Virus record (IMG/VR): IMGVR_UViG_3300006204_000004
Span: 62,067 to 126,066 of that record
Strand: one strand, 5' to 3'
Source: a virus
Taxonomy: Duplodnaviria > Heunggongvirae > Uroviricota > Caudoviricetes
Length of the DNA stretch: 64,000 bases
Below are positions 5,273 to 47,179 of this stretch, piece by piece. The notes under the pieces are model-generated. The model worked only from the letters and a program-made list of their open reading frames with translations. It was not told the origin of the DNA and did no database searches. The position numbers and the translations under genes were made by a program. Every line of letters starts with the position of its first letter. Positions within the stretch are counted from its first letter, which is position 1.

Positions 5273-5276
5273 TAAA

Positions 5277-6128
5277 ATGAATGAAGAATTGGATGATTTG
5301 TTATATTCAAATGAAGCTTTAGCCTCAAGATTTGTTCTTTTTCAAGGATTAAACGAAATAAATCTAATTGTTGAAGATACAGACAGAGAATATATTTATG
5401 AAACCATATTTAAACGTATGCTAGGGGATAATTATAATATTTCTGCTATATTTGCTGTCGGCGGTAAACAAGCTGTTATAGAAAGATATAAAGAGTTTCG
5501 TGATGAAACTGGTAGAATAAAAAATTTTTATATTGTAGATGGAGATTTCGATAGATATATTCATCAAGATGAAATGATATATGACACTTGTTTTATTTAT
5601 TTAGAAACATATAATATAGAAAATTACTTAATAGACGAAAAAGCTTGTTTGCAATTTTCAAAAGGTCATTTAAGATGCTTAGATAATGTTGTTAAAAATA
5701 AAGTTAATTTTAATGCGTGGAAAAACAGAATAATATCAGAATCTACTAAACTATTTTTATGTTATTGTTATGTGCAAAAATTTCACCCATATATAGAAAC
5801 TTTATCCCGCTCTTCTTTCTTGTTTCTTGATGATAAAACGGGTTTTGAAAGAGAAAATGCATACGAAAAATATTGGAATAATGAAATTTCTGTATTAGAC
5901 ACCAATCCACAAAATAAAATTGATGAAATTGATTCCATTTACAAATCAGTCAATGGCGATAATTACTTCAATCTTATTTGCGGGAAATTTTTATTAGACA
6001 GTTTATGTGCTTATTTAAGAAATTTGTTCGATGAGACTTTTAATAAAGAGGAATTTAAATGGCATTTAATCAATCATTTCGATATATCAAAATTAGACTA
6101 TATTAAGAATATAATTTTAACATCTTAG
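5277..6128 (+). CDS. DUF4435/TOPRIM-like partner of the ATPase (AriB-like)
   Basis: Tightly coupled to the upstream ATPase. Acidic motifs IVEDTDRE and YIVDGDFDR are compatible with a TOPRIM/OLD-type E...DxD arrangement. Size matches AriB. This is an inference, not a strong motif match. Confidence 0.45.
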   Translation: MNEELDDLLYSNEALASRFVLFQGLNEINLIVEDTDREYIYETIFKRMLGDNYNISAIFAVGGKQAVIERYKEFRDETGRIKNFYIVDGDFDRYIHQDEMIYDTCFIYLETYNIENYLIDEKACLQFSKGHLRCLDNVVKNKVNFNAWKNRIISESTKLFLCYCYVQKFHPYIETLSRSSFLFLDDKTGFERENAYEKYWNNEISVLDTNPQNKIDEIDSIYKSVNGDNYFNLICGKFLLDSLCAYLRNLFDETFNKEEFKWHLINHFDISKLDYIKNIILTS

Positions 6129-13000: not shown

Positions 13001-16000
13001 GCATCCAAATTGAAGGACAAGATCAGTGACCTCCTCTCTTTCGGTTCCAAGAAGAAACAGACACAGAAAGCCATTGAAGCAACAACAAAAGCATTGGAAG
13101 CCGAATACAAGGCAATGAAGAAATATGCAGAAGTTGCCAAAACATTATCTGCTGATGCTGCAAAGGAAACAACCGAAACTGTTACTGAAAGCATCTCTGG
13201 TGCAGTGAGTGATGCTGTTAACGGTGCTGTATCTGATGTTTCCAGTTCAGTTGCGTCAGATGTAGTTGCCGAAGCAATGAAATATGTCGGCGTGCTTGAT
13301 TATGTCTGGGGAGGAACAAGCCTTACAAAAGGTGCGGACTGTTCTGGATTTGTACAGCAGGTTTATAGAAAGCTTGGTATGGAAATCCCAAGAAATACCA
13401 CTGGGCAGTATGGTGATTCAAACAGTATATCTGTCAGTAAAGCAGATTTACAGCCTGGAGATCTGGTATTTTTCCAGGGATCTCTTGGTTCACCTGGAAA
13501 TCCAAGGCACGTTGGAATTTATGCTGGAAATGGGCAGTTTATAGATTCACCAACAACAGGTAAAAAAGTTCAGATTACATCTTTATCCGGGCGTAGTGAT
13601 TATATCGGGGCAAAACGTTACGCTGGGGCATCTTCCGCGCCAGTTAATTCCTCTGTATCCTATGACACTCCATCTACGACAACAACGACATACACAAAAG
13701 TTGTCCCAGGCATTGACAGTAAAACACTGGCACATTACCAGAAACTTGTCCGCGAAGGTTCTTTTGACATTGAAACAATCACCAATGAAAAATTAAAGAA
13801 CGCAATCAAATCCTATCAGGAATGGTATGATAAGATGAAGTCATGCCGTGATAAGATTGAGGAATTAAATAATACCCTCAAAGAACTGTACCAGACAATG
13901 GCAGAAATCCCTATCGAGAAAAGGGATAAAAATGTCGATACGCTGGATACAAGGCTGGATATTATCAATTCCAAGCGTGACAACATCAATGCAGTGATTG
14001 TTGATCCTAAGAAGTATGCTTCTACAAAGAAAACACTTAAGCAATCCAAAAACAGTGTCAAAAAGGGAATAAAGACCAAAGCACAGAGAAATGCAACTGG
14101 TTTATCCAAGACTGAAATTGATACAATCAAATCCCAGATGAAAAAGGGTCAGACTATCCCCGCAAAGATTCTGGATAAGATTACAAATGGTGCTGTTTAT
14201 GAACAGTGTAAGCAATACAATGATGCTGTTTATGAACATAGCCAGTATGCGAAGTCTATTCGTACTGCCGGGGATTCCATTAAGAAGTATAATACGATTT
14301 CAGATCAGATTCTTGACGCAGAAAAAGCAAAGACAAAACAGTATAAGACTGCGTATAATACAACTTCAAAGAATTATGGGAAGTCTCTTGATAATGTAAA
14401 ATCCAAAGGTGCCCAGACAAAGAAAGCATTCGGTTCTAAGAAATTCGGTCTTACCAGTGCGGATATCAACAGAATAAATTCCTGTATCAAATCTGGTAAA
14501 CAGATTCCTACGGATTTAATGGTACAGCTTCAATCACAAAGCATTTTTGACTCCTGTGTTGAATACAACAAAGCTGTCATGGAGAATGAGCTTCTGAGGG
14601 AAAAGCTGGATGAAACAAGGTTTGACTTACAGAAACAGCAGCAAGCAGAGACAGCGGCACATTTACAGAATAAGACAGAAAAGCACCAGAATATTGCTGA
14701 CAAGGCATCTGCAAAGATGGAACGCAATGAGGCTCTTGCTGAAAATGCGGATACTCCAAAGAAAAAGAACAAATACCTCAGCAAGAACCTTGGGCTTTTA
14801 CAAACAGAATATAAGCACCTGATTAAAATTGCAGAGCTGGAGAATGACAGTGTAAAAGCTGCAAAACTCCGAGCAGAATTAGAGAAAGAAACAGCAGGTA
14901 TCATTGAACAGCAGTTCCAAAACATCAGCGGCTACTACTCTGCTAGGCGTGATAAGGTTTCAGATAAAGAATCGTTGCAGGATGTACGGTACGAGAATGC
15001 GCAGGTTGATGTTCAAAAAAAGAATGATATCCTGAACATTAAAACACGTTTTGCTGCTGAGCGAAATGCTGAATCTGAACAGGAATACACGGATACAGCA
15101 AAACTGTTCAATACAAACAGGACAAATGCGAAAAAGGCTGTAAACAAGGTTAAAAAGTTAAGCAGTTCGGATAAGGGCAAGATCCTGAAACTGATGGAAT
15201 CTAAGGAAGAAATTCCTGAGAATCTTATGGATAAGGTTGCGAAACTTGACCCAGATGCATACCAAAAACTGTTAAGCTATAACGATTCCCTTGACTGGCT
15301 GGAAAAAGCTGCATTAAATAAAAAGATTTCAAATGAAGAACTGATAAAGGCAAAGCGTGAGAATGAAATCCAGAAACACCAGAATGTAGCAGACCGTGCA
15401 CAGGATAAGATGGATAAGAATGACGCGCTTAGTGAGGTGTCTACTTCTGCTTCTGAACAGAATAAGTATGAAAAAGAGAATATCAAATATCTAAACACAC
15501 AGTACAAACACCTGCTTGAAATTGCAAAGCTGCACGAGGATGATGTGGAATACGCACGCCTGGAAGCAGAACAGCAGGCTAAGATTGCAGAAGCATACAA
15601 AGCAATGTTTGATAATGTGCAGACAGAGTTTGAAAATAAAATTTCTTTAATAAGCAATGACATTTTCGATCTTGATAATGAGATCAAGAAAGTCGAAGCA
15701 TCAGGAAGGCTTGTGGATGCATCATATTATAACCATAAGATTTCATTTGAAAATGAATCCCTTGCTAAATTAAAAGAGGAAGAGGCAAGCCTTGCGGAAC
15801 AGTTAAAGAATGTAAAGATGTTCTCCCCTGCGTGGTATGAATGCCAGGATGCAATCCAGGGTGTGCAAAATGCACAAGCGGATTCTTTATCAAAAGTGAA
15901 GGAATATAAGGACGCAATCAATGAAATTGCAGACACCATCCAGAATGATATCGTGGATGCATTTCATGATGTTACGGACGAAGCGGAATTGTTGGTTACC

Positions 16001-17758
16001 CTGCTGGGTGATGAACTGAGTGATGAAGATACAGGCGTATTAACGAAAGATGGACTTGCAGTATTATCCTTATATGTGTCACAGATGAATATCTGTAAGG
16101 ATGCAGCCGAATCCTTCCATAAAGAAATTAACTCCATGCAGGATGCGTTAGACAGCGGGACATTATCCTTTATTGATGCAAACGGTATCCAGCGGGAATA
16201 CGCTTCTGTATTTGAACTAAAGAAAGCAATCAAAGACTTTTACTCTTCTTACCGTGATGAAATCAAACATGTTTACGATTATGAGTCCAAAATTGTAGAC
16301 ATGATGATTAAGAAATACCAGTCTGAATTGGATTATTTGAAAGAGCTGATTGAAAAGAAAAAAGCGGAACTCGATGCCGAAAAAGACCTTCATGACTATG
16401 CTAAATCACTGAAAGAACAGACAGACAATATCAATTCCCTGCGGAAACAGATTGCTGCCTTAAAAGGTGACACATCTAAAGAAACAGAATCCCGTATCCA
16501 GAAATTGCAGTCACAGTTGAAAGAATCTGAATCATCGCTTGAAGAGCAGGAATATGAACGCTATATCTCTGACCAACAGGATATGCTTGACCATTTATAT
16601 GATGAATATGCCAAACTCGTAGACAATGTAATGAAAGACCATGACAAACTCTTAAAAGAAGGCTTGGACTTATTCGCGCAGACAGCTTCAGATGTACAGG
16701 ACGTAATTAAAGCAACAGCAGAAGAACATGGCTATGAAATTACTGCTGAAATGGAAAAGGTCATTGCATCCATTGAAGGCATGGGTCATTTAGACTCCTA
16801 TCTTGGTGTTGGAGGTACTATTACACAGTCCCTTGGCGATATCGTAAACGAGGTTCATAATGCTTATGTTGGCATATCTTCTGAATTCCAGGGGTTAAAA
16901 GATGCAATTGCTTCTATCGGTTACCAGGGGAAATATGATACTTCTGATCCTGATCATTCAGCTTCTTCTGGAAATACAACGGAAAGTACAGGGAATACTT
17001 CTATACCATCAGGAAATACAAGCACGCCAGCAGGTAATGTTACAAATACGGATTTGGACAAACTGCCAGACATGGATGCTGTAGGGGCAGCAACCAAAAT
17101 GGCTATAAATAAGCTGTTACGTAATGGGACAAATACTTATGACCCAAAGACAACATCAAGCTTGAACAAATACATCTATGGGAAATACGGGAGCGCGCTG
17201 ACCGTTGATGAGATGGCAAAGCTATCTGGATATCTTGGATTTAATTATACTTCCAAACAGTTAGCAGCAGAAAACCCTAACCATTCAGAACGTAAGATGA
17301 AAATGCTTAAAAAGCTACAAGCATATGGGTTTGCAAATGGGGGGATTGTTCCAGATGATGCTTTGAAATTAAAAGACCTTGGAATGGGACGTGCTTCAAA
17401 TGGGGATACGGTGATCGGCACATTAAAACCAAAAGAAAGCGTGTTCAATGAAAAACAGACAAAAATGATCCAGGAATATGTGAACAAGGCACCAGATTAT
17501 AAGACTGTGATGGATATTGGGAATTACATGGATAAGTTTGTGAAGATGCCAGCGGTTGAAAAGAAAGATAACCAGGTACAGAATATACTACAGGTTGGAG
17601 ATGTCAGTTTTAATCTGCCGAATGTATATGACTATGCTGATCTCATGAATGAGGCAAAGAACGATCCGAAATTTGAGGAAATGATTGCACGTATTATGAA
17701 ACATCAGCTTGGATTTGGAAGCTATTTGAAAAAGACAAATGTTACTTTCAGGCATTAG
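10091..17758 (+). CDS. Tail tape-measure protein (2555 aa) with embedded NlpC/P60 peptidoglycan hydrolase domain
   Basis: N-terminal hydrophobic segment and long coiled coils. NlpC/P60 at nt ~13290-13620 (WGG...DCSGFVQQVY...HVGIY). Internal ~230-aa duplication. Immediately upstream of the Dit/Tal genes. Confidence 0.6.
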   Translation: MIFKTTTITSWLSGTSNSINDEIIQPFQNAEQVIWKYNQAIQHNSLTQQGWERLLAQSDDGLKSYLTSIKGTSASMIGYTTSLQGNIVGLKKVSSAITQYNSLTITGTSEQNMFAMAVSTTNGKLGSYLTSLNGAKATLGGYTVSLFSATAKTIALKAATLALNTAMTMGISVAISAVIEGIQYLCNANERYIESQKQIIDKTTENIQKYEDEITSLNALQSKLEDAKGDKTELAKIQNELNAAIGNTPELLNTESNAYEVANQKIEDRIERLKELRELELERKITAQKEIFNNSKVSNEWGFDHKFDYFSDHKLKLTSRNNSDEDFFKYIDDDLKNRYVSLQELFNNLIKNNYGDGKKSYAEIWKELIDSYGGAFFDTSEIQTFFDEQSSIAKELLKEYIDNSDSIFSKEELNSIIENLVESGYAQDLEGIRSVITSLVKNDDLKSTIDEYYNSLFDENIDSDKLYQKIKSQFDELSNKYPELQNILNNFFNNIGTDIKNGVENTIENVEKITTISGILEKFGQTEAIDKYKDKISSLQSYLEKLEDGNFSPVDAEALANEFNIVGVTAEECIDKINAKIQSEKNNIIAIIDDIIKQGLADGSIGDAELEKLRSYRDILAEIADVNLDNQLSLKTGNALADVQSLSQGLDQLDKIYADILDKEAFDFSSILNNDSFKEAFSAYTDEYDNFINTVSKSPDDINACQDAFNKLTAAYIKGSGVLSEVTEGTKQQTVNMLKQMGVANAAEIVEQALIENEKMLAAQKYATSQGCKDLEKATYEEINALIAEGETTEEVMKYLAKLAIEKWKANKEELKTQADCDNLLKLADYAGATAGQIRELKNAMADLNTFDFTNPMGSMLGSAVDNFIINAAEKMPGLKKSPFYKNVVKNKKKQDKADKTINDIMEDVEKQLLADLNVPEFKVDYSGGITTKDTLEKLQKEAEKQDKKNEETAEQFDWMDIKLNNLIDTASKLKDKISDLLSFGSKKKQTQKAIEATTKALEAEYKAMKKYAEVAKTLSADAAKETTETVTESISGAVSDAVNGAVSDVSSSVASDVVAEAMKYVGVLDYVWGGTSLTKGADCSGFVQQVYRKLGMEIPRNTTGQYGDSNSISVSKADLQPGDLVFFQGSLGSPGNPRHVGIYAGNGQFIDSPTTGKKVQITSLSGRSDYIGAKRYAGASSAPVNSSVSYDTPSTTTTTYTKVVPGIDSKTLAHYQKLVREGSFDIETITNEKLKNAIKSYQEWYDKMKSCRDKIEELNNTLKELYQTMAEIPIEKRDKNVDTLDTRLDIINSKRDNINAVIVDPKKYASTKKTLKQSKNSVKKGIKTKAQRNATGLSKTEIDTIKSQMKKGQTIPAKILDKITNGAVYEQCKQYNDAVYEHSQYAKSIRTAGDSIKKYNTISDQILDAEKAKTKQYKTAYNTTSKNYGKSLDNVKSKGAQTKKAFGSKKFGLTSADINRINSCIKSGKQIPTDLMVQLQSQSIFDSCVEYNKAVMENELLREKLDETRFDLQKQQQAETAAHLQNKTEKHQNIADKASAKMERNEALAENADTPKKKNKYLSKNLGLLQTEYKHLIKIAELENDSVKAAKLRAELEKETAGIIEQQFQNISGYYSARRDKVSDKESLQDVRYENAQVDVQKKNDILNIKTRFAAERNAESEQEYTDTAKLFNTNRTNAKKAVNKVKKLSSSDKGKILKLMESKEEIPENLMDKVAKLDPDAYQKLLSYNDSLDWLEKAALNKKISNEELIKAKRENEIQKHQNVADRAQDKMDKNDALSEVSTSASEQNKYEKENIKYLNTQYKHLLEIAKLHEDDVEYARLEAEQQAKIAEAYKAMFDNVQTEFENKISLISNDIFDLDNEIKKVEASGRLVDASYYNHKISFENESLAKLKEEEASLAEQLKNVKMFSPAWYECQDAIQGVQNAQADSLSKVKEYKDAINEIADTIQNDIVDAFHDVTDEAELLVTLLGDELSDEDTGVLTKDGLAVLSLYVSQMNICKDAAESFHKEINSMQDALDSGTLSFIDANGIQREYASVFELKKAIKDFYSSYRDEIKHVYDYESKIVDMMIKKYQSELDYLKELIEKKKAELDAEKDLHDYAKSLKEQTDNINSLRKQIAALKGDTSKETESRIQKLQSQLKESESSLEEQEYERYISDQQDMLDHLYDEYAKLVDNVMKDHDKLLKEGLDLFAQTASDVQDVIKATAEEHGYEITAEMEKVIASIEGMGHLDSYLGVGGTITQSLGDIVNEVHNAYVGISSEFQGLKDAIASIGYQGKYDTSDPDHSASSGNTTESTGNTSIPSGNTSTPAGNVTNTDLDKLPDMDAVGAATKMAINKLLRNGTNTYDPKTTSSLNKYIYGKYGSALTVDEMAKLSGYLGFNYTSKQLAAENPNHSERKMKMLKKLQAYGFANGGIVPDDALKLKDLGMGRASNGDTVIGTLKPKESVFNEKQTKMIQEYVNKAPDYKTVMDIGNYMDKFVKMPAVEKKDNQVQNILQVGDVSFNLPNVYDYADLMNEAKNDPKFEEMIARIMKHQLGFGSYLKKTNVTFRH

Positions 17759-20622: not shown

Positions 20623-21408
20623 GTGGATGCTACAAATTTTATATTTGATGGAAAAAGTTTAAGCGATTTTGGTTTTATTATATGTGAATTTAATGGGGAA
20701 ACAAATACTTCTACTCCATCAAATATTACATTCATCACCTTAAAAGTCCCTGACAATGATAGAAGAAGATTTTTATCATCTAATTATGAAGATGTAATTT
20801 CATTTGAATTTTCTATTGCTAAATATGAAAGCAAAAAAAATAATCTTTCAATAAATAGTTATGAAGACAGAGCAATAAGAAAGTGGTTATGCCGCGAAGA
20901 TGGTTTTCATGAACTTATAATCGAGCAGGATGATTTTTATAATATATACTATAATGCTCAGATTAATATAACTCCACAAATGGTTTGCGGACGAATACGT
21001 GGGTATAAGCTTACTATTACAACTGATAATGTATATGGTTATACTGAATTGTTAGAAACAGAATTTGATATAAACAGTTCTACTCAATATAATTTCTTAG
21101 CTTTATCTGACAAAGCGGACTACTTCTACCCTATCTGGGAAATTACTCCATTACAAAACGGTGATTTACATTTGAAAATTTTAGAAGATATAAATCAGAC
21201 ATATACTATTCTGAAATCTGTAAAGGCAAATTCTAAAATTACTATTGATTCTGAAAATGGAATTATTGAAGGAATAAGCCCCGATAATTTTAACTGGCAA
21301 CTACCACGGATTGTTCAAGGTTATGATGAAACACTCAATACAATCACTTCTACCCTTCCATGCCATATCAAATTAAAATACAAATTAGCGAGAAAGGTGG
21401 TGTGTTAG
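20623..21408 (+). CDS. Distal tail protein (Dit, siphovirus tail component)
   Basis: 261 aa, sits between the TMP and Tal. N-terminus is typical of Sipho_tail proteins. Confidence 0.6.
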   Translation: MDATNFIFDGKSLSDFGFIICEFNGETNTSTPSNITFITLKVPDNDRRRFLSSNYEDVISFEFSIAKYESKKNNLSINSYEDRAIRKWLCREDGFHELIIEQDDFYNIYYNAQINITPQMVCGRIRGYKLTITTDNVYGYTELLETEFDINSSTQYNFLALSDKADYFYPIWEITPLQNGDLHLKILEDINQTYTILKSVKANSKITIDSENGIIEGISPDNFNWQLPRIVQGYDETLNTITSTLPCHIKLKYKLARKVVC

Positions 21409-29522: not shown

Positions 29523-31187
29523 ATGTCTGCAAAAACAAAAAGACCAAATACGATAAAATATATGGGCAAGAAAATTGCAAACAATGGTGATGAAAATGAT
29601 TATTCAAAAACACCTATTGGTGCTGATTCTGATAATGTTGATCGACCAGATAATAGTACTGTTGAAGAATCTCTTGTCAAAATTGAAACGGAAAAAGTTG
29701 AAATTATTCCTGTAGAAGTTCTTCCAGAATCAAATATTAAAGTATATCCATACATCTATGCTTTAGTTAAGCCAAGTGAATCAAAAGGCATTCTTTATGA
29801 GTATAAAAATGATCGCTGGATTAATTATAGTAATGGTGCAAAAGGAATTTGGGTTGGAACAAAGGAAGAATGTGTTAAAGATTTTAATAATATAGAATCA
29901 GGAACAATTGTAATTATTATAAAAAAGAAATCAGATAGTGGTGAAACTCATACACATGACTATGTATGTCAGATTACTAAAGAGCCAACATATTCACAAT
30001 CAGGGATTAAAACTTATACTTGCTTTTTATGTGGGGATACCTACACAGAAGAAATTCCTGCGCTTATCGATAGTATTAATCCAGCAGGCGTAATTAGAAT
30101 TGGAGACAATGAATATGCAACATGGAAAGATACTATTTCATTTGATAGTTATTATAAAGATGATCAGACTGTTACGATTGAAGCCACTGATAATGAAACA
30201 GGTGTAAAAGAAATTTCTTATTACTTATCAAATACTGCCATAAATGATTCATCTATTGGCACAGTTACTTGGACATCATATACTGATCCATTTACAATCC
30301 AACCAAATGATAATTATATTGTGTATGCACGCATAACAGACAATGCAGATAATGTAACCTATATCTGTTCCGATGGTATTGTAATGGATAACATTCCACC
30401 TGTGTTTGAAGGACTAGAAGATGGCGGTATCTACCCTGCTGGCACTGTTCTAACTGTTGAGGAAGGCGCTACCCTATCTGTCAATGATGAGGTTGTAGAA
30501 CTTGTAAATAATTCCTATACGTTTACAGAACCGATGGATAATATTAGATTATCCATTACTGATAGAGCTGGAAATGCCAATTTTATAAGTATTGTAGTCG
30601 AAAATACTAATATCGGCACAGCACCTAAAGAAGAAATCCTAAATTGGGAATATTCACTCGACAAAAATTATAAAACCATTACATTGAAAAAATTTAAAAG
30701 GTATGATGTAACAGATGTAAGAATATACGGAAGTTATGATATAGATGGGGATATATATGCTACTAGATTAAATTCTGAAGTGGAATATACAAGTGATGGA
30801 CTATTTTCTTCAAAGATAGATTTGAAAACAGTTACTTTTAATGATGATGTTGATACACGTAACGTGACAAATATATCTGCAATGTTTTATAATTGTTTTT
30901 CATTAGAAAGTGTTAATTTTGGTAAGAACTTTACTACAGACAAAGTTGAGAGAATGGCATATATGTTTCATGGCTGTTCGTCTCTAAAATCATTGGATTT
31001 AACAAATTTTAATAACGCAATTGCAAAAAATACTTACAATGGACATTTATTAATGTTTGGTAAATGCAATAATTTATCAGCGATATATGTATCAAGAGAT
31101 AAATGGTCAGAAGATATAAGGCAAGATGCTGGGAAAAATAATATGTTCTCTGAATGTGGAGTATCTAATGTAACTTATGTCGATTAA
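29523..31187 (+). CDS. Receptor-binding/tail-fibre protein: Ig-like and Cys-rich repeat region plus C-terminal BspA-type leucine-rich-repeat cassette A (expressed copy)
   Basis: LRR_5/BspA-type repeats (NISAMFYNCFSLESVNFG..., AYMFHGCSSLKSLDL...). The constant region contains the inversion crossover sites at 30537-30594. Confidence 0.65.
   Translation: MSAKTKRPNTIKYMGKKIANNGDENDYSKTPIGADSDNVDRPDNSTVEESLVKIETEKVEIIPVEVLPESNIKVYPYIYALVKPSESKGILYEYKNDRWINYSNGAKGIWVGTKEECVKDFNNIESGTIVIIIKKKSDSGETHTHDYVCQITKEPTYSQSGIKTYTCFLCGDTYTEEIPALIDSINPAGVIRIGDNEYATWKDTISFDSYYKDDQTVTIEATDNETGVKEISYYLSNTAINDSSIGTVTWTSYTDPFTIQPNDNYIVYARITDNADNVTYICSDGIVMDNIPPVFEGLEDGGIYPAGTVLTVEEGATLSVNDEVVELVNNSYTFTEPMDNIRLSITDRAGNANFISIVVENTNIGTAPKEEILNWEYSLDKNYKTITLKKFKRYDVTDVRIYGSYDIDGDIYATRLNSEVEYTSDGLFSSKIDLKTVTFNDDVDTRNVTNISAMFYNCFSLESVNFGKNFTTDKVERMAYMFHGCSSLKSLDLTNFNNAIAKNTYNGHLLMFGKCNNLSAIYVSRDKWSEDIRQDAGKNNMFSECGVSNVTYVD
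30537..30594 (+). repeat. Inversion crossover sites R1 (30537-30575, 39 bp) and R2 (30572-30594, 23 bp) inside the fibre gene
   Basis: R1 matches the reverse complement at 33868-33906 (37/39). R2 matches the reverse complement at 32141-32163 (23/23). Homology to the inverted cassettes stops exactly at these sites. Confidence 0.7.
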
Positions 31188-31219
31188 CGAAATAAATTTC
31201 TCATTTACAGAAAATATAT

Positions 31220-31280
31220 CTTCCATCTTAGATGATTAATAGATTGAATTTTTATCTTGAATAATCATCTAAGATGGAAG
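31220..31280. terminator. Bidirectional hairpin between convergent cassettes A and B
   Basis: Perfect 19-bp inverted repeat CTTCCATCTTAGATGATTA ... TAATCATCTAAGATGGAAG with a 23-nt loop. Confidence 0.55.
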
Positions 31281-31298
31281 CATAGGAATATTTTTATT

Positions 31299-32129
31299 TT
31301 AATCTACATAAGTAACCTCTGATACACTACATTCATAAAACATCATCATTGTATCTGCTTGAGAAATTATCCATTTTGTCTTAGAAACAAAAATATTTAT
31401 AAGATTTGAGCAATATTGAAACATTCCAAGCATATTTTTAACCTTAGAAGTATTAAAACTTGCTAGGTCTAAAGATTTTAAATTTTTACATCCATTAAAC
31501 ATATTAGACATAGATTCTACTTTTTGTGTATCAAATGGAATAGTTAAATCACCTAGATTTTCACATTTACAAAACATGAAATCCATATCTGTTACATTAG
31601 ACGTAATTAATCCATCTATATTAAGATCTCTTAAATTTATACACTTATAAAACATATATTCCATATTTGTAACATTTGAAGTGTTAAAATTAGATAAATC
31701 TATAGATTCTATTTTTTCACATCCAGAAAACATATACTCTAAATTGACAACGTTAAACTTATTATTTCCCCAATTAATTGTTTTTAAATTTTTGCATCCA
31801 TCAAACATATGACTAAAATCTGTAAAATCAGAAATACCTATATCACTAAAATCTATTGATACTAAATCAACACAATGTTGAAATAATCGGCTCACTTCTC
31901 CAAATTTAACGCCATTTTTAAATGTTATTGATTTTATTCCATATGTCATAAAAAGTGCAAAATAATTACCACCATATCCATCATCCATACTAATAAATGT
32001 ATTATATTTTTTATTATTTACTGTATATGTATCATATATAGTTATATCCTTTGCTTCTCCTTTGTGTTTATACGAGTGTAATCGTATTTCATTATTTTCT
32101 TCATTTAAAATGTAACTCCAATCCAACAA
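31299..32129 (-). CDS. Promoterless alternative C-terminal BspA-LRR cassette B (inverted orientation)
   Basis: Homology to cassette A begins at NANFISI, encoded by R2' just upstream of the annotated TTG. The C-terminus ECSVSEVTYVD parallels ECGVSNVTYVD of cassette A. No upstream promoter or RBS context. Confidence 0.65.
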   Translation of the reverse strand: MLDWSYILNEENNEIRLHSYKHKGEAKDITIYDTYTVNNKKYNTFISMDDGYGGNYFALFMTYGIKSITFKNGVKFGEVSRLFQHCVDLVSIDFSDIGISDFTDFSHMFDGCKNLKTINWGNNKFNVVNLEYMFSGCEKIESIDLSNFNTSNVTNMEYMFYKCINLRDLNIDGLITSNVTDMDFMFCKCENLGDLTIPFDTQKVESMSNMFNGCKNLKSLDLASFNTSKVKNMLGMFQYCSNLINIFVSKTKWIISQADTMMMFYECSVSEVTYVD

Positions 32130-32140
32130 AGGATCTATAC

Positions 32141-32163
32141 CAATACTTATAAAATTGGCATTT
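32141..32163 (-). repeat. R2' inverted crossover site
   Basis: Exact reverse complement of 30572-30594 (AAATGCCAATTTTATAAGTATTG). Confidence 0.7.
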
Positions 32164-32299
32164 TAAGATCTATTCAGGCTTGTATTTGTATATAGATATG
32201 TGCCTGGCGTGGCTTAATTTGGGAAATAGAGTATATTTATTGTGTACTTTTGTAGAAAATTTTCGGAATGATTTTTTTGAGAACTATTTGAAGAAAACC

Positions 32300-32328
32300 T
32301 TGAAATCTATTGTCAGATATGCTATATT
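32300..32328 (+). promoter_or_regulatory. Sigma-A-like promoter for antitoxin-like sRNA A
   Basis: TTGAAA-17 nt-TATATT. Confidence 0.5.
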
Positions 32329-32334
32329 ATAAAT

Positions 32335-32430
32335 ATAAAAGGAGCAACCGCCCACAAAGTGGTTGACTTCCCAGGTTAATTATATAAACCTACCTGATCC
32401 GGCAAGATACAAGGTAGGTTTATTTATTTT
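32335..32430 (+). ncRNA. Candidate antitoxin sRNA A (par/RNAII-like), ends at bidirectional terminator
   Basis: ~95 nt from promoter to hairpin AAACCTACCT-16 nt-AGGTAGGTTT plus ATTTATTTT (32386-32430). Convergent with peptide gene A. Confidence 0.45.
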
Positions 32431-32519
32431 CGCTTGTTATTCCTATCTATGTAGGCAAGCAGCGCGATTAGAAAGTTACCGCCTAAAAGCAAAAGGCTTA
32501 AGACTTGGTAAGTATCCAT
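32424..32519 (-). CDS. Fst-like type I toxin peptide A (31 aa: MDTYQVLSLLLLGGNFLIALLAYIDRNNKRK)
   Basis: SD GGGAGGTGGTG 8 nt before the ATG. The SD can pair with upstream CCTCCCT (sequestering hairpin). Stop lies immediately at the shared terminator. Minus-strand promoter TTGAAG-17-TATGAT at ~32600-32628. Confidence 0.5.
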   Translation of the reverse strand: MDTYQVLSLLLLGGNFLIALLAYIDRNNKRK

Positions 32520-32694
32520 CTGCACCACCTCCCTTCTTTTCAAGTTAGGGAGGTTACCACCTTGTAACACGATTACTCCGTAAGATAATCATATCACAGA
32601 TGGTATCCTGCTTCAACAATTTTTTACATGATTCTCTATTGTTTTAAGGTGTGTTTGTACTTACGTCTTAAAAACTGCGATTATTTATTGATAG

Positions 32695-33906
32695 TTAGTT
32701 AATCGCAAGTGCTCCCCAAGGAGAGCCGGTGGCAGATCCGTGGTAAGTAATGTGAGGTACATTATAAAATGCGTCTGGGTCAATAGATTCAACAGATGAT
32801 GGAATTATTAAATTAGATATATTAGTACAATTATGAAATGCACTTCTTCCAATCTTTATTATACTATCAGGAATTATAAAATTCGTTAATAATTTTTGAC
32901 CATAGAATAATAGCGAAGGAATTTCTTCTATATTTTGAGATTGTATAGTAAAGCTTGTAAATTTTACAAATTGCCAAATATTACTTATTTTATTTACATT
33001 TTCTCCGATATATACATCACATCCGCTTTCGGAACATAAATATCGTAATTCAATACCAAATGTATCAGCATGATCTGAATTATAATAAAATTCTGTAACG
33101 CTTTTTGAATCTCCAAAACTTGAAGCATGATTACTTATTAGCTTATTATAACTATTTGGAATTGTAATTTTCTTTAAATTAGGACATTTATTAAAAATTC
33201 CTGCACCAATTTCTTCAACTCCTTCTGGAATATTTACACTTATCAAATTTGTTGCATTTTCAAATGCTAATTCATTAATAATTTTGACTGAATTTGGAAT
33301 TTCTATAGATGCTCCACTTCCAATTCCATCAATAGTTAATATAGAGCTACATTCTGAAAAACATCTTAAAGGTATTTCTTTAATGCCAGAAGAAAGAACT
33401 ATATGTTGTAAATTTGAACAACAAATACCATTTATTTTCGTTACGTTATTTGTCATATTAATTGTTTTCAATGACGAACTTCTTATATAATGTATATCAG
33501 AAACAGTATCAGGAAGTGATATACTTATTAAATCGTTAACTTCTTTAAGATTGATTTTGGTTGTTTTATATTTTTGACCATTAAATTCAAAGGTGTCAGG
33601 GACTATAACATCACCACTCAACGATGTTAATCCCGTTTTGGAATAATTGTTTTCTGTTAATTCAAAATCTTCATACTCGCTTTTCCCGCAAACAGTACAA
33701 ATTCCATCAACAAAGTCATGGTGTCCACTGGCAGGAATGGTTTCTGTATAAGTATCACCACATTCACAAGTATAAGTTATAATCCCATCTTCTGTACATG
33801 TAGCTTCTTTTGTAATTTCTTGGGTATAATTATGTACATGAATTATATCTATACTAATTGAAGAACTATTTCCAGCTCTATCAGTTAAGGATAATCTAAT
33901 ATTATC
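32695..33906 (-). CDS. Promoterless alternative C-terminal cassette C (Cys-rich repeat plus BspA-LRR), inverted orientation, no start codon
   Basis: Annotated ORF (TTG at 33621) continues in frame upstream to 33918 with no ATG. The 5' end DNIRLSLTDRAGN is encoded by R1' and parallels DNIRLSITDRAGN of the expressed gene. Confidence 0.6.
   Translation of the reverse strand, partial: DNIRLSLTDRAGNSSSISIDIIHVHNYTQEITKEATCTEDGIITYTCECGDTYTETIPASGHHDFVDGICTVCGKSEYEDFELTENNYSKTGLTSLSGDVIVPDTFEFNGQKYKTTKINLKEVNDLISISLPDTVSDIHYIRSSSLKTINMTNNVTKINGICCSNLQHIVLSSGIKEIPLRCFSECSSILTIDGIGSGASIEIPNSVKIINELAFENATNLISVNIPEGVEEIGAGIFNKCPNLKKITIPNSYNKLISNHASSFGDSKSVTEFYYNSDHADTFGIELRYLCSESGCDVYIGENVNKISNIWQFVKFTSFTIQSQNIEEIPSLLFYGQKLLTNFIIPDSIIKIGRSAFHNCTNISNLIIPSSVESIDPDAFYNVPHITYHGSATGSPWGALAIN
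33868..33906 (-). repeat. R1' inverted crossover site
   Basis: Reverse complement of 30537-30575 with 2 mismatches. Confidence 0.7.
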
Positions 33907-33966
33907 TGTTAAAATTAGCAGTTATTTATAAAAGATACCAGGAGATCACATCTTAAAAAATACATA

Positions 33967-33995
33967 TTGCATCTTTAAATTGTATATGCTATAAT
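33967..33995 (+). promoter_or_regulatory. Sigma-A-like promoter for sRNA B
   Basis: TTGCAT-17 nt-TATAAT. Confidence 0.5.
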
Positions 33996-34001
33996 TGTCA
34001 C

Positions 34002-34092
34002 AGGCAAAAGGATATAATAAGTCTATAAAGACAAAGAACGAAATCCCCGAACTGTGCTGGAACACTGTTCGGGGATTCTTCTTTACTTTTTA
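34002..34092 (+). ncRNA. Candidate antitoxin-like sRNA B ending at bidirectional terminator
   Basis: Hairpin AATCCCCGAAC-14 nt-GTTCGGGGATT at 34042-34077 followed by a T-rich tail. Convergent with peptide gene B. Confidence 0.4.
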
Positions 34093-34114
34093 TAGCGGTA
34101 AAGCATCCGCTAGG

Positions 34115-34261
34115 CTACTTGTTGTCCTCATTGTCGCTGTCCAACCATTTGCAGATATAGTAGGCAACTACACCAGCCATAACAGAAACTAAAAAGGATA
34201 TAATAATGTCTATAAAAACACCTCCTCCTGTTGCCAGGTATCGGTAAGACAACATAGTCAT
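34115..34261 (-). CDS. Small hydrophobic peptide B (48 aa: MTMLSYRYLATGGGVFIDIIISFLVSVMAGVVAYYICKWLDSDNEDNK), type I toxin-like
   Basis: TM core plus acidic tail. Directly downstream of the recombinase stop; its own stop abuts the shared terminator. SD is distant (AAAGGAG ~31 nt upstream), with possible coupling to a 5-codon leader. Confidence 0.4.
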   Translation of the reverse strand: MTMLSYRYLATGGGVFIDIIISFLVSVMAGVVAYYICKWLDSDNEDNK

Positions 34262-34304
34262 TATACCATATTCATCATTAATCGACAATATGCTCCTTTA
34301 TTAT

Positions 34305-35294
34305 TCAAATACAAAAATCTTTTCTTGGATGCTTCGTACACAGGATATCCTTTTGCTTTGAAACAGTAACATGCGTATATATTTCTGTAACATTGATAGA
34401 ACTATGCCCCAACATTTCCTGGATGTATCGAATATCTACATCTGCTTCTAATAAACTTGTTGCAAATGTATGCCGGAACATATGCGGTGTGATATGCAAG
34501 TTTATTTTAGCGACAGCAGCATACTTATTAATCATTCTGCGCACCGATTGATCGGATAAAGCTTCACCTATATTATTTATAAAAAAGTGATTTGTAGTTT
34601 CAATCTTTGTTCTGAATGTTTCTCTATATTCTTTTAGAATTTTTATTACTGGCTCATTTCCAATATGGATACGCCTTTCTTTGCTTCCTTTTCCGTAGAT
34701 CAATACTACTCCATTATCTAAATCAATATTGTTATCTTTTAGTTCACAAAGTTCTGATATCCTCATTCCTGTAGAAAATAAAAGCTCAATCACGGCTGCA
34801 TCCCTCAATGCATTTTTTCTTTGGTATTCTGTTTTAGAGTTATCTAATTGCTGATAAATAGATGCTAATAGTTTTTCTACTGTATTTAGTGGTATTGTTT
34901 TGGGTAATATGTTAGGTTCACGAAACTGTATTTGCAGTTTATTAAATGGATTTTTATAAATGATATCTTTGTATTCGAGATAATGAAAAAATGATTTTAT
35001 AGAAGCTATTTTTCTTTTGACAGTCTTTGGCTTATACTGTATATGTAGTTTAGATATATACTCTTCTATTGTGTTTGATGTGATATTTGTAATGGTAGGA
35101 TCTGAGATCCCTGCTGTAGATTGAACAAATTGTTTCAAATCAATACGGTATGCCTTTAATGTTTTTCGATCTAAACGCTTTTGTGACTCACAATATTTTA
35201 AATAATTTTCTATGTATGATTGTAAATTGCTTGTTAATGTGTTTGTAGACTTTTTCTTGGAGTAATTCTTTTCATTATTCATTGTTTTATTCAT
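34305..35294 (-). CDS. Tyrosine site-specific recombinase (XerC/D-Rci size), candidate shufflon invertase
   Basis: C-terminal catalytic region HTFATSLLEADVDIRYIQEMLGHSSINVTEIYTHV and an N-terminal core-binding domain. Lies ~400 bp from cassette C. Confidence 0.85.
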   Translation of the reverse strand: MNKTMNNEKNYSKKKSTNTLTSNLQSYIENYLKYCESQKRLDRKTLKAYRIDLKQFVQSTAGISDPTITNITSNTIEEYISKLHIQYKPKTVKRKIASIKSFFHYLEYKDIIYKNPFNKLQIQFREPNILPKTIPLNTVEKLLASIYQQLDNSKTEYQRKNALRDAAVIELLFSTGMRISELCELKDNNIDLDNGVVLIYGKGSKERRIHIGNEPVIKILKEYRETFRTKIETTNHFFINNIGEALSDQSVRRMINKYAAVAKINLHITPHMFRHTFATSLLEADVDIRYIQEMLGHSSINVTEIYTHVTVSKQKDILCTKHPRKDFCI

Positions 35295-43615: not shown

Positions 43616-46600
43616 ATGAAGAAATGCTTTTTAAAGAAAGTGCTTGCAAGTATTTTATCTTCGGCTATGATTGTATCTGCAGTACCGCAGACAAATTTAG
43701 CAACTATATCTGCAGCAAAGAAAAATGTAGGACTTAATACTACTTTTAAAACCTTGAAGGTTGGCAAAAGTTACAAATTGAAATTGAAAAATAATTCTAT
43801 TAATTGGAAAATCCAAAAAGTATCAACTACGAATAAAAGAATTTGTACGGTTTACAAAAAGAAATCTACGTCCGTTTTATTAAAGGGTAAAAATGAAGGA
43901 CGAGCTACAATTAAGATCAAAGTTAAAACCAGCAAAAGAAGGACGTTTAATAAGAAAACATTAAAATGCAGGGTCAAGGTTGTACCAAGAAAGTTTACAC
44001 CTGCCCCAGAACCGCAACCTGATCCAGTTCCAGAACCGATAACTACATATAGTATAACATTCAATACAAATGGTGGAAGTTATATTTCTGGGCAATCAGT
44101 TGAAAGTGGAAAAATAATCATAAAACCGAATGATCCTGTAAGACAAGATTATGTATTTAAAGGATGGTATAGTGATATTAATCTTGAAAATGTATATGAT
44201 TTTTCAAGTGCTGTAACAGGAAATATAACATTATATGCAAAATGGAATAATACATATACAGTAAAATTTCAAACAAATGGTGGAAATACTATTGAAGACC
44301 AGATTATAGAAAATGGTGAAAAAGTCACAAAACCAAACGATCCTACGAGATCAAGATCGATATTTTTAGGGTGGTTTAGTGATGGTCAATTAAAAGAAAA
44401 ATATGATTTTTCAAGTACAGTTACAAAAGATATGACTATTTATGCCAGATGGCAAGTTGAAAATGATTATCAACCTAATTGGGGTTATACGGGTGGGAAT
44501 ACTACAGGAAATAATTCAGGAAATAATAATGCAATGCCAGTTAAATATACAGTGAAATTTGATTCAAATGGCGGAAGTAAAATCGAAGACCAGATTATTG
44601 TAGACGGTAACAATGCTATAAAACCAAAAGATCCAATAAAAGAAGGATATATTTTTGATGGTTGGTATATGGATAGTGAATTTAAAGAAACATTTGATTT
44701 TAAAATGGATATAACAAAAAATGTCACATTATATGCAAAGTGGACGAATAAAATTACATATACAGTGACGTTTGATTCTAACGGAGGCAATAAAATCCAA
44801 GAACAAATTATTGAAGATGGAAATTGTGCCATAATACCTGATAATCCGATAAGAAATGGTTATATTTTTGATGGATGGTATACAGGAAAGGAACAAAATG
44901 AAAAATTTAACTTTGAAAGTATTATATTAGAAAATATAACATTATATGCAAAATGGATAATTGATGACAATATGAAGTTTGATTTGGGAAAAATTGAGAA
45001 TTTAGTAAGTGATGGAACTATTACAATTTCTCAAAAAAATGATACATCTATTAAATTTATGGATGGAGTTTTTTTGAATAAAGAAGTTAATAATACTTCA
45101 GATGCTTTAGATATTTTAGATAAGGTGTCTCCAATCTTGACAGTAGACGATAATAATATTGTTGAAACTATAGGAGATATTGAAACATATTCAGAAAATT
45201 TTGGAAGTGATTTTGAAGAGAATTATTATTTATTTAAGCCTGAGATAGGTGGTATTCCTGTAGAAGGAAGTGATATTATTTTAATTACAGGTGACGACCA
45301 TATTCCTCAAGTATTAATAAATTCTTATAATAATGATATTGAAAAAGTTAATATAATTCCAGATGAAGATGTAACAAATAGTATAGAAGATATTATAAAA
45401 AATAATATTATGTCTAATGTAAAAGAGGGTGTGGAATCTGAGTTGATATCTGCGATATTAGAATCGTTGAGTTATGATAAAAAGTTAGTTATATATGCGA
45501 TAGGTGAGGATAAAAAACCACAACTTGCTTGGAAAGTAATAGTAACCAGCAAAACTAATATAGAAGAGGGCGGAAACGTTATCGATGATATTGATATAGA
45601 ATCTTTATCTGAGAGTATGGTGCCCAATATATGTTTGAGTTATTATATTTGTGCAAATGGTTCTGATGGAGGGTCAATTATTGTACAGTCACCAGTGGGT
45701 CAAGGTATTTGGACACCTACACAGGCAGAAGGAGAAGATATAAAAGGTAATTCTCAAACATTTAATTGTGAAGTTCAAGATAATGAATATCGAATGGTTG
45801 ATAATATTCGTAATATTTCAACATATCGAACATTATATAGATCATATGGGTTTTTAGGACTAGGAAAACAAGAAGCAGTTTTGCCTGGGGAGATTTCAAA
45901 AAAAGGATTATTTGGATGGAACAAAAAAACAGTATCTGCACATACAACAATGGCAAAAGCATATGATTATTATAAAAATAATTTAAACAGAAAATCTTAT
46001 GATGGTAGTGGGGACGATATAAAACTAAGTGTTGAATATGTTCCTGATAGTACAAATGCATTTGGTTGGTTATTTAATGTTTTTTTTAATAGCAATGCAT
46101 GTTGGCATCCATATTATAAACAATTTATGTTTAATAACGCAGGAGGATTTGAAGCTGCATTAGATGTATGTGGACACGAATTTACACATGCTGTTATAAA
46201 TACAATAGTAGGAGGAAAAAGTTTAGAAACAACTTTAACTTATATTGGCGAAACGGGTGCATTAAACGAGTCGTATGCAGATATATTAGGTTGCTTAATC
46301 GAAAGAAAAACAGGACATGATAAATGGCTTATTAGTGAAGACGCTACTGATGGTGCTATACGAGATATGTCAAATCCTTCAGTATATGATCAACCTGATC
46401 ATTATGATAATAAATATACGGGTGATAACAACAGTAAATATGTACATACAAATAGTGGTATTTTTAACTACGCAGCCTATAAAATGATGACAGATAATCG
46501 AACATCAAATATTTCTGATGATAAATGGGCCAAAGTATTTTATAAATCACTTTATCGCTTAACAACAGATGCTGATTTTTTAGAAGCAAGTTTAGCCGTA

Positions 46601-47179
46601 ATTAATTCCGCTAAAACTTTAGGTTTTACATATGATCAATTAGAAGCAATACGTGATGCATATAAAGCAGTAGGAATCATTGAAGATAATACTGTAAGAA
46701 TTGTGCTACGTTGGGGCGAAATACCACAAGATTTAGATGCACATCTTGTTGGGCCTGCAGTTAATGATGGAGAAAAGTTTCATGTGTATTTTTCTAATAA
46801 GCATTATTATAGTGAAAACGAAGATAATATTGCTGACTTAGATTATGATTATACTAATGGAAATGGTATAGAAATTATTTCAATACGTACTTTAACTCCA
46901 GGTGATTATTATTATTATGTACATGATTATAGTAATAAAGGTAGTACAGATTCTATGGAGATGTCAAAGTCTGATGCAATTGTTAAAGTGTATCAAGGTA
47001 CAACAAATGAAATATTAAAAACAACTGATGGAAAAGATGCATCATTTAATATTGATAAGACAAAGAATGCAACTTTATGGACGGTAATGCATATACATAT
47101 AAATGAGAATCACACAATAGATATTAAAAGTGAAAATAACTATGCATATCATTATAATGAAGATACAATTGGACAATAA
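43616..47179 (+). CDS. Secreted M4 (thermolysin-like) zinc metalloprotease with five Listeria-Bacteroides-type repeats
   Basis: Signal peptide. Five repeats of YTVKFDSNGG...GYIFDGWY...NVTLYAKW. HExxH (VCGHEFTHAV) plus GALNESYADI third ligand. Confidence 0.8.
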   Translation: MKKCFLKKVLASILSSAMIVSAVPQTNLATISAAKKNVGLNTTFKTLKVGKSYKLKLKNNSINWKIQKVSTTNKRICTVYKKKSTSVLLKGKNEGRATIKIKVKTSKRRTFNKKTLKCRVKVVPRKFTPAPEPQPDPVPEPITTYSITFNTNGGSYISGQSVESGKIIIKPNDPVRQDYVFKGWYSDINLENVYDFSSAVTGNITLYAKWNNTYTVKFQTNGGNTIEDQIIENGEKVTKPNDPTRSRSIFLGWFSDGQLKEKYDFSSTVTKDMTIYARWQVENDYQPNWGYTGGNTTGNNSGNNNAMPVKYTVKFDSNGGSKIEDQIIVDGNNAIKPKDPIKEGYIFDGWYMDSEFKETFDFKMDITKNVTLYAKWTNKITYTVTFDSNGGNKIQEQIIEDGNCAIIPDNPIRNGYIFDGWYTGKEQNEKFNFESIILENITLYAKWIIDDNMKFDLGKIENLVSDGTITISQKNDTSIKFMDGVFLNKEVNNTSDALDILDKVSPILTVDDNNIVETIGDIETYSENFGSDFEENYYLFKPEIGGIPVEGSDIILITGDDHIPQVLINSYNNDIEKVNIIPDEDVTNSIEDIIKNNIMSNVKEGVESELISAILESLSYDKKLVIYAIGEDKKPQLAWKVIVTSKTNIEEGGNVIDDIDIESLSESMVPNICLSYYICANGSDGGSIIVQSPVGQGIWTPTQAEGEDIKGNSQTFNCEVQDNEYRMVDNIRNISTYRTLYRSYGFLGLGKQEAVLPGEISKKGLFGWNKKTVSAHTTMAKAYDYYKNNLNRKSYDGSGDDIKLSVEYVPDSTNAFGWLFNVFFNSNACWHPYYKQFMFNNAGGFEAALDVCGHEFTHAVINTIVGGKSLETTLTYIGETGALNESYADILGCLIERKTGHDKWLISEDATDGAIRDMSNPSVYDQPDHYDNKYTGDNNSKYVHTNSGIFNYAAYKMMTDNRTSNISDDKWAKVFYKSLYRLTTDADFLEASLAVINSAKTLGFTYDQLEAIRDAYKAVGIIEDNTVRIVLRWGEIPQDLDAHLVGPAVNDGEKFHVYFSNKHYYSENEDNIADLDYDYTNGNGIEIISIRTLTPGDYYYYVHDYSNKGSTDSMEMSKSDAIVKVYQGTTNEILKTTDGKDASFNIDKTKNATLWTVMHIHINENHTIDIKSENNYAYHYNEDTIGQ

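Follow-up and report, generated by a model that had tools for sequence, protein, structure and literature searches.

The window analysed here is a stretch of 64,000 nucleotides (nt) from a virus of the class Caudoviricetes (positions 62,067 to 126,066 of IMG/VR record IMGVR_UViG_3300006204_000004). It contains a tail-fibre gene of 554 amino acids (aa; 29523-31187, + strand), two silent C-terminal cassettes and a gene for a tyrosine recombinase. We interpret this locus as a switch that works by site-specific inversion of several DNA segments (a shufflon, if the term is taken broadly) and provides one fibre with three alternative leucine-rich repeat (LRR) tips, and we assign to this reading a probability of about 0.8. 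In the mechanism that we propose, a single promoter and start codon would drive the constant part of the fibre (aa 1-338), which in the window continues into cassette A. Exchange between the site R1 and its inverted copy R1' would invert 30537-33906 and fuse cassette C to the constant part, and exchange between R2 and R2' would invert 30562-32173 and place cassette B there. The displaced cassette would fall silent and keep the reciprocal flank, so that the events would be reversible and could be chained. The XerD-like recombinase would bind both arms of the core sequence in R1 and exchange strands across its asymmetric centre, an asymmetry that would allow inversion only. The three LRR tips presumably recognize different host surface receptors and may in this way determine host range.

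All three predicted fusions were found in public assemblies, as the constant part joined to A (proteins P0001 and P0039), to B (P0180) and to C (P0186 and P0184); the three fibre variants foreseen by the initial annotation of this DNA therefore all exist in deposited sequence. P0186 (741 aa, locus L113) is identical to the fusion of the constant part and cassette C predicted from the window at 740 of 741 residues. P0180 (634 aa, L114-L120) represents the fusion to cassette B with the junction DRAGNANFISIGIDPLLDWSY and is present on at least 24 contigs from many studies. The counterparts were detected as well: in P0037 and P0038 (217 aa), cassette A forms a silent, inverted and detached open reading frame (ORF), which occurs in L103-L106, L113 and L114, and P0059 (297 aa), found on 50 contigs, is the silent cassette B. 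When compared with the window, L113 was collinear to 30575 (99.6% identity), inverted from 30537 to 33906 (98.6%) and collinear again from 33868 (99.9%), which puts its breakpoints at R1/R1'. L114 was collinear to 30594, inverted from 30562 to 32173 (97%) and collinear from 32141, with breakpoints at R2/R2'. The reciprocal flanks matched the expectation at base level, with silent cassette A lying behind the former upstream flank of C in L113 and behind the former, decayed flank of B in L114. Four states, A, B, C and C', were found in the window, L114-L120, L113 and L103-L105, respectively. The products of one and of two inversion steps at the two nested site pairs are both represented. L103 and L115, which have consecutive ENA accessions, are 99.9% identical in their flanks, yet two inversions separate their states (C' in L103, B in L115). 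As judged from these assembled sequences, inversions occur in nature at exactly the R1/R1' and R2/R2' sites, the breakpoints at which the initial annotation had proposed to look for alternative orientations.

The contigs containing the junctions originated from SPAdes, MEGAHIT (k119/k141) and Logan assemblies, many of them with k = 119-141. This exceeds the repeat length (exact stretches of 18-42 nt), and we therefore consider the junctions to be real spanning sequence. The flipped alleles sat in 90% clusters represented by fragments or cassettes and were found via the listings of cluster members; a direct search with the constant region returned P0001 alone at 100% identity, and no flipped allele was visible there. 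IMG/VR scans with the constant part and cassettes B and C gave nothing related, and family-alignment scans of metagenomes and genomes gave distant relatives plus three closer loci only, without returning the phage of the window itself. The deposited phage and plasmid collections held no close relative of the fibre. One locus, L001, has the sequence of the window in the same orientation and is uninformative on switching.

The constant part (29523-30536, + strand) is a putative receptor-binding gene, assigned from the ORF, its relatives, the AlphaFold model and the gene position. It begins with a low-confidence N-terminus, followed by a Cys-rich motif and then by immunoglobulin (Ig)-like beta-sandwich domains. 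In a protein search with the constant region, relatives were 72-79% identical across aa 1-338 only, and the C-termini of the family are unrelated beyond the motif DRAGN. This motif is part of the strand motif DN..LS.TDRAGN, which is encoded by the repeats and kept in all family members. The body of the currently expressed cassette A, including its stop codon, occupies 30595-31187 (+ strand; Pfam DUF285 and LRR_5). Silent cassette B (31299-32162, - strand) comprises 287 codons of a DUF285/LRR C-terminus (DUF285, 3e-29). Its frame opens at 32162 (AAT GCC AAT TTT ATA AGT ATT GGT...) without a start codon, immediately downstream of a TAA at 32165-32163; the extent of 31299-32129 given originally proved to be that of the mechanical ORF only. 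Silent cassette C (32695-33906, - strand; 403 codons) runs in frame from 33906 (GAT AAT ATT AGA...) to its stop at 32695, lacks a start codon and has stop codons upstream. It encodes a Cys-rich motif in addition to its BspA-type LRR C-terminus (LRR_5, 4e-33). Pfam bore out the description of the C-termini as BspA-type LRR modules, with DUF285/BspA-type LRR_5 assigned to all three, and the fusions in P0180 and P0186 occur at the junctions predicted for start-less cassettes that continue the constant region in frame.

The Cys-rich motif, ITKE(P/A)T…G…TYTC..CG.TYTE.IPA, is located at aa 151-180 of the constant region and recurs as a second copy in cassette C. The two copies form a 50-nt inverted repeat of 78% identity, I2 (29973-30022 / 33767-33816). 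We considered I2 as a third exchange site and rejected it: it reflects a shared protein motif, and no breakpoint maps there. The AlphaFold model of the fibre (mean predicted local distance difference test score, pLDDT, of 68.7) showed Ig-like beta domains to residue 356 and, after a short linker modelled with low confidence (358-362), an LRR domain modelled with confidence (365-554). Fold comparison matched the LRR tip to BspA-family TpLRR and the middle part to Ig-like adhesin domains and repeats; it gave no match to any solved phage receptor-binding protein, nor was there a PHROG match for the fibre. On the basis of its gene position and adhesin-like fold, the fibre is a putative receptor-binding protein.

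The two exchange sites at the expression locus are adjoining. R1 (30537-30575, + strand) was defined by inverted repeat I1 and the breakpoint towards L113, and its partner R1' lies at the 5' end of cassette C (33868-33906, - strand, with the core at 33890-33906). The repeat finder gave 37 matches in 39 positions for this pair, as originally reported, and the similarity extends to 56 nt at 82% (30537-30592 / 33851-33906). R2 (30572-30594, + strand; AAATGCCAATTTTATAAGTATTG) was defined by inverted repeat I4 and the breakpoint towards L114. Its partner R2' is found at the 5' end of cassette B, where it is joined to a decayed remnant of the R1 right half (ATAGATCTTAAAAT; together 32141-32173, - strand). 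Here the agreement is 23/23 (30572-30594 / 32141-32163), again as reported, and 30/33 over the extended range (30562-30594 / 32141-32173). In the 64-kb window, the 23-mer of R2 occurs twice with up to 3 mismatches, against 0.00 occurrences expected, and the 17-nt dyad core of R1 (GATAATNNNNNATTATC) exactly twice against 0.07 expected; the repeats are therefore not due to chance.

The R1 core at 30537-30553 reads GATAAT-ATTAG-ATTATC. With its flanks (30534-30556) it can be written as ATGGATAAT/ATTAG/ATTATCCAT, two perfect arms of 9 bp around an asymmetric centre. R2 is without such a dyad core and shows only a weak CCAAT-N9-ATTGG symmetry. The nested sites of the initial annotation thus both exchange in nature, but they are not equivalent, as the conserved dyad core is present in R1 only. 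Together R1 and R2 encode aa 339-357, which according to the AlphaFold domain layout are the final two beta-strands of the constant Ig-like domain before the domain boundary. Across lineages the consensus core is GATAAT-N5-ATTATC. In the distant relatives L067, L068, L069 and L010 the core is the sole remaining repeat, as an 18-nt inverted repeat with the sequence GATAATTGCAGATTATCC in L067 and L068, GGATAATATACGATTATC in L069 and GATAACTACTTATTATCT in L010. Loci with silent cassettes have exactly two cores each, and cassette-less loci have one or none. The length of the inverted repeat varied between loci: it was reduced to the 18-nt core in L067-L069, where a recombinase is adjacent, and measured 43-57 nt in L005, L071 and L072, where none is.

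Inversion was also observed in other lineages. Between L005 and L107, L109 and L110 the flanks are 99.9% identical, and a segment of 2,243 nt is 100% identical but inverted. The 42-nt shared core of this lineage, ATGGATAATTGTATATTATCATT[A/G]ACTGATAAAGCAGGGAAT, includes an A/G marker that travels with the cassette. The crossover must therefore fall within the initial 23 nt of this repeat, where the dyad core lies. The window/L113 pair, with TTA at both L113 arms, does not permit the crossover position to be mapped. Taken from sequence comparison, the R1 crossover lies in or beside the dyad core GATAAT-N5-ATTATC. In a third lineage, the distal core of L010 encodes the exact C-terminus of the truncated protein P0048, which indicates that this lineage has flipped as well; there, an IS66-family element (TnpC, TnpB, TnpA) at 7424-10074 of L010 separates the silent cassette body from its core. 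Flipping in the L010 lineage gives a truncated fibre of 356 aa (P0048 on 6 contigs, P0051 on 2) that is presumably non-functional. The L005-type lineage carries an IS605 OrfB/TnpB (Cas12f-like) gene just upstream of the tail module (L107, 1-958).

The enzyme that we presume to be the invertase is encoded at 34305-35294 (- strand), about 400 bp from cassette C. As annotated, it is a tyrosine recombinase of 329 aa, with Phage_integrase (Pfam, 2e-43) and SAM_1 as its only domains and without an arm-binding domain. The label "Rci-like" that it had been given is corrected to XerC/XerD-like: the best family and structure matches were XerC, XerD and XerA, and the protein aligned over its full length with XerD (1a0p), with the catalytic R, K, HxxR, H and Y conserved (TGMRISEL, GKGSKER, HMFRH, LGH, IYTHV). 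Its NCBIfam scores stayed below the equivalog cut-offs (256.6 bits against 335 for XerC, 250.2 against 329.6 for XerD). Among the larger ORFs of the window there was no other recombinase, and no serine (resolvase-family) recombinase either.

The recombinase gene adjoins the cassettes in L067, L068, L069, L103-L105 and L113-L115, that is, in four lineages (the window group, L067, L068 and L069). It was never seen at the fibre-adjacent position without cassettes and is absent from the cassette-less loci L002, L006 and L070. Homologues with 50-62% identity are present on two unrelated human-faecal phage contigs, L121 (MT835475.1) and L122 (MT838418.1), which have no fibre cassettes. Each of these has one GATAAT-N5-RTTATC core at 0.2-1 kb from the recombinase gene, against about 0.01 or fewer expected, at 8689-8705 in L121 and at 2844-2860 in L122, the latter inside a longer palindrome CCGAG…CTCGG. 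Perhaps these lone cores serve the same family of recombinases as sites of resolution or attachment. Their proximity to the homologous genes supports the core as the cognate site of the family and, on sequence grounds, suggests that the family originated in a resolution- or integration-type module. From the adjacency and the co-occurrence with the sites, we infer that the adjacent recombinase catalyses the inversions.

Several observations weigh against the interpretation as a recombinase-driven switch of receptor-binding tips. Both contigs with the exact sequence of the window are in state A, and the evidence for alternative orientations is a comparison between assemblies of different samples. 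R2 has no recognizable core and the A-to-B exchange is known from one sublineage only, so that it could be the outcome of one rare event. Flipping in the L005 and L010 lineages takes place although no recombinase lies between the fibre gene and parB; either the gene for the enzyme can be located elsewhere, or the flips there are due to another enzyme. The homologues with a single core and no cassettes may hint that the primary task of the family is resolution or integration. Finally, the receptor-binding role was deduced from position and adhesin-like fold, with no phage receptor-binding fold among the matches.

One alternative concerns R2. It holds that R1 is the sole true site-specific site and that the R2 exchange was a rare short-homology or illegitimate event between shared coding stretches of 23-33 nt, leaving cassette B of the window nearly locked. 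Besides the missing GATAAT-N5-ATTATC core, the decayed R1 right half upstream of B, with an indel and a stop codon, looks as if a former R1 had been lost there, and the A-to-B product is confined to the sublineage that also has state C' and a 348-aa ORF. Yet L103 and L115 are only about 0.08% apart and stand on opposite sides of the R2 exchange, which makes the R2 event a recent one, and the B-expressing genomes and their derivatives are the commonest in the databases, as the contig counts of P0180 and P0059 illustrate. Moreover, an identity of 23 nt is very short for RecA-type recombination. We treat this alternative as tentative but quite conceivable, somewhat short of an even chance.

A further reading combines several of these elements. 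According to it, an Xer-type recombinase family and its dif-like core GATAAT-N5-ATTATC would originally have served the resolution or integration of phages or plasmids and would later have been recruited to alter a virion protein. In L005 and L010, which flip without an adjacent recombinase, an enzyme acting in trans would switch the fibre, perhaps the Xer machinery of the host working on the in-frame dif-like core, and the core-less R2 would represent a second mode of recombination. As a whole we consider this combination unlikely.

A related alternative accepts the inversions but assigns them to another enzyme. The Xer-like recombinase beside the cassettes would then serve plasmid-dimer resolution or integration of the phage-plasmid, and the flips would be made in trans, for instance by a host XerC/D-type enzyme acting on a dif-like core or by another enzyme of the approximately 130-kb element. 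The lineages L005/L107-112 and L010/P0048, which flip without a recombinase between the fibre gene and parB (as aligned by synteny with L002), favour such an arrangement. So do the single cores of the homologues on L121 and L122, which resemble a resolution or integration module, the position of the recombinase gene next to parAB and rep, and the likeness of the core to the inner arms of Xer dif sites (ATAA-spacer-TTAT). On the other hand, the fibre-adjacent recombinase is restricted to cassette-bearing genomes, a third core standing by itself, at which resolution could take place, is missing from the 64-kb window, and the company that the core keeps with the recombinase family across unrelated phages argues that the family recognizes the core, whatever its role. 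We regard this alternative as quite unlikely. A last view denies any switch: the inversions would be misassemblies, or, as in the refuting condition of the initial annotation, the repeats would merely be coding sequence that paralogues with independent expression have in common. We find it hardly credible. The repeats do fall in coding sequence, and the strand motif that they encode is conserved. However, both B and C lack a start codon and are preceded by stops just upstream, the fusions to the constant part recur in dozens of contigs that stem from several studies and were built with different assemblers, the exact repeat stretches are shorter than the assembly k-mers, and the inverted segments are 97-100% identical between states and carry reciprocal flanks.

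The inversion switch is part of a larger element. The fibre gene closes a siphovirus-type tail module that includes a tape measure protein with an NlpC/P60 domain (10091-17758), Dit (20623-21408) and, upstream of the fibre, a Tal-like protein of 1446 aa. Beyond the recombinase follow a Peptidase_G2 tail-spike-like gene, ParB, ParA and a Rep3/RepM-type initiator. The contigs bearing the element are 126-133 kb long and, together with the tail module and the ParA, ParB and Rep genes, they identify the element as a phage-plasmid. The guanine-plus-cytosine (GC) content of the window is 30.9%, and among isolates the fibre has its closest relative in Eubacterium plexicaudatum ASF492 (65% identity), with others in metagenome-assembled genomes of uncultured Eubacterium. 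The element is a phage-plasmid of about 130 kb from low-GC gut Clostridia.

Between the convergent cassettes A and B lies a perfect hairpin with a 19-bp stem (31220-31280; inverted repeat I12), which remains between the bodies of A and B in every state. Its fold energies on the two strands are -31.5 and -32.2 kcal/mol (z of -5.3 and -6.6). The stem is thus as perfect as described initially and stable, and the two-way terminator proposed for it is a plausible candidate function, although a simple terminator scan did not call it. Rfam gave sub-threshold matches only, and a mir-392 match on this hairpin was discarded as spurious. A gene for a small hydrophobic peptide of 31 aa of the Hol-Tox family is located at 32424-32519 (- strand; Pfam PF16935, 2e-10), with a strong ribosome-binding site and a terminator-like hairpin downstream (32389-32406). 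The surrounding region, 32310-32582, gave a sub-threshold match to BsrG, a type I toxin mRNA. The Hol-Tox gene lies within the R1-invertible segment, and in state C it follows the fibre gene and points in the same direction. L006, a relative without cassettes, also contains a copy, with 84% identity.

A small transmembrane ORF (…YYICKWLDSDNEDNK) occupies 34115-34288 (- strand), between the last cassette and the recombinase, and overlaps a sub-threshold match to the small RNA SpF66 at 34030-34248. In relatives, the same slot is filled by a 348-aa ORF with multiple transmembrane segments (L103, L114), a HicA toxin (L005) or a Phd/YefM antitoxin (L069), so that it looks like a hot spot for toxin/addiction cargo. 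The ORFs of 348, 366 and 190 aa at the same position in relatives gave no Pfam match and are not recognizable recombinases. Elsewhere in the window, at 200-2970 and 3899-6128, genes for a type I restriction-modification methylase (N6_Mtase) and specificity subunit (Methylase_S) are followed by AAA_21/AbiEii-like and DUF4435 genes, a defence-type cargo in which a single HsdS gene was seen. A protein of 1187 aa with Listeria-Bacteroides repeats and a thermolysin-type M4 peptidase domain (43616-47179, + strand) is a secreted or surface protease, unusual on a phage-plasmid.

The switch of tail-fibre genes by inversion is textbook knowledge for Mu, P1 and p15B, where serine invertases are used. The version with a tyrosine recombinase, the Rin shufflon, has so far been described only in prophages of Actinobacteria, and with the window locus the principle reaches phage-plasmids of Clostridia from the gut, of which very few phages are cultured. 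What is exchanged here are BspA-type LRR domains, at a compact core that is part of the reading frame. Human gut metagenomes commonly contain the three states, with the B form on at least 24 contigs, and orientation could therefore be scored in existing read sets and used to follow phage-host dynamics. The 17-nt core and the 329-aa recombinase together form a small candidate inversion module for engineering. Assemblies and gene callers split or mis-annotate such fibres, so that recognition of the switch improves virome annotation.

Known systems resemble the window locus to different degrees. Gin of Mu, Cin of P1 and Min of p15B likewise switch the C-termini of tail fibres behind a constant N-terminus by DNA inversion, but they are serine invertases, whereas the neighbouring enzyme in the window is a tyrosine recombinase. 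These systems use 26-bp sites and a Fis-dependent enhancer and belong to Proteobacteria. p15B is also a phage-plasmid and has several nested invertible segments that yield many fibre variants (PMC6109161). The R64 shufflon (Rci, sfx, pilV) shares with the window a tyrosine recombinase, segments that invert singly or in groups and the replacement of the C-terminus of a surface adhesin that specifies the partner. Its target, in contrast, is the tip of a conjugative pilus (pilV) rather than a phage tail gene, it relies on one sfx family instead of the unrelated R1 and R2, of which R1 is dyad-symmetric, and the window enzyme is XerC/XerD-like, with NCBIfam and PDB returning Xer-type families only. 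The sfx sites of R64 are asymmetric, with one conserved arm.

Inversion systems of Mycoplasma, vsa/HvsR of M. pulmonis and vpma/Xer1 of M. agalactiae, act on chromosomal bacterial lipoprotein genes and serve immune or phage evasion. They have in common with the window an Xer-like tyrosine recombinase beside the locus, one expression site with promoter and 5' end, and silent 5'-truncated genes that recombine at short conserved sites; they involve no virion protein, and their sites and proteins differ. The Xer/dif modules (XerC/D-dif, XerS-difSL, XerH-difH) show the same core organization of arm, short spacer and arm with ATAA...TTAT inner arms, and the distant homologues of the window enzyme with a single core beside the gene fit this pattern. 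Here the differences are that the window enzyme remains below the XerC/XerD equivalog cut-offs and that its paired, inverted sites within coding sequence yield inversions, not resolution.

A full-text search of the literature gave no report of such a switch in Clostridia phage-plasmids or with LRR cassettes. The arrangement, which the initial annotation did not know as a commonly described one, does have a published precedent. Systematic surveys have found programmed inversions to be enriched in tail-fibre genes (PMC9881135), and the Rin shufflon of Bifidobacterium breve and B. longum prophages was described as having the first phage-encoded invertase of the tyrosine family (Mavrich et al. 2018, PMC6109161), later found in Eggerthella lenta prophages as well (PMC8778435). 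By analogy of organization, we consider Rin the closest precedent for the window locus. Both have a phage tyrosine recombinase of XerD-like build without arm-binding domain beside the locus, a gene for a receptor-binding protein (a putative one in the window) with a constant N-terminus, several C-terminal cassettes without promoters downstream of it (A, B and C in the window), short crossover sites at the cassette starts, alternative arrangements between genomes and a presumed role in host-range switching of gut phages. Rin, however, is known from integrated prophages of Actinobacteria, its cassettes resemble the TP901-1 receptor-binding head or H-type lectins, and its rix site is an asymmetric 11-mer (TTCCCTAACCC), of which no copy was found in the window with one mismatch allowed. 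The window instead has a phage-plasmid of low-GC Clostridia, BspA/DUF285 LRR cassettes and a dyad core that is read in frame as D-N...L-S, plus the unrelated R2. The kind of switch is thus already known from other phages, and the window locus works like Rin but differs from it in host phylum, replicon, cassette fold, exchange site and the presence of a second site.

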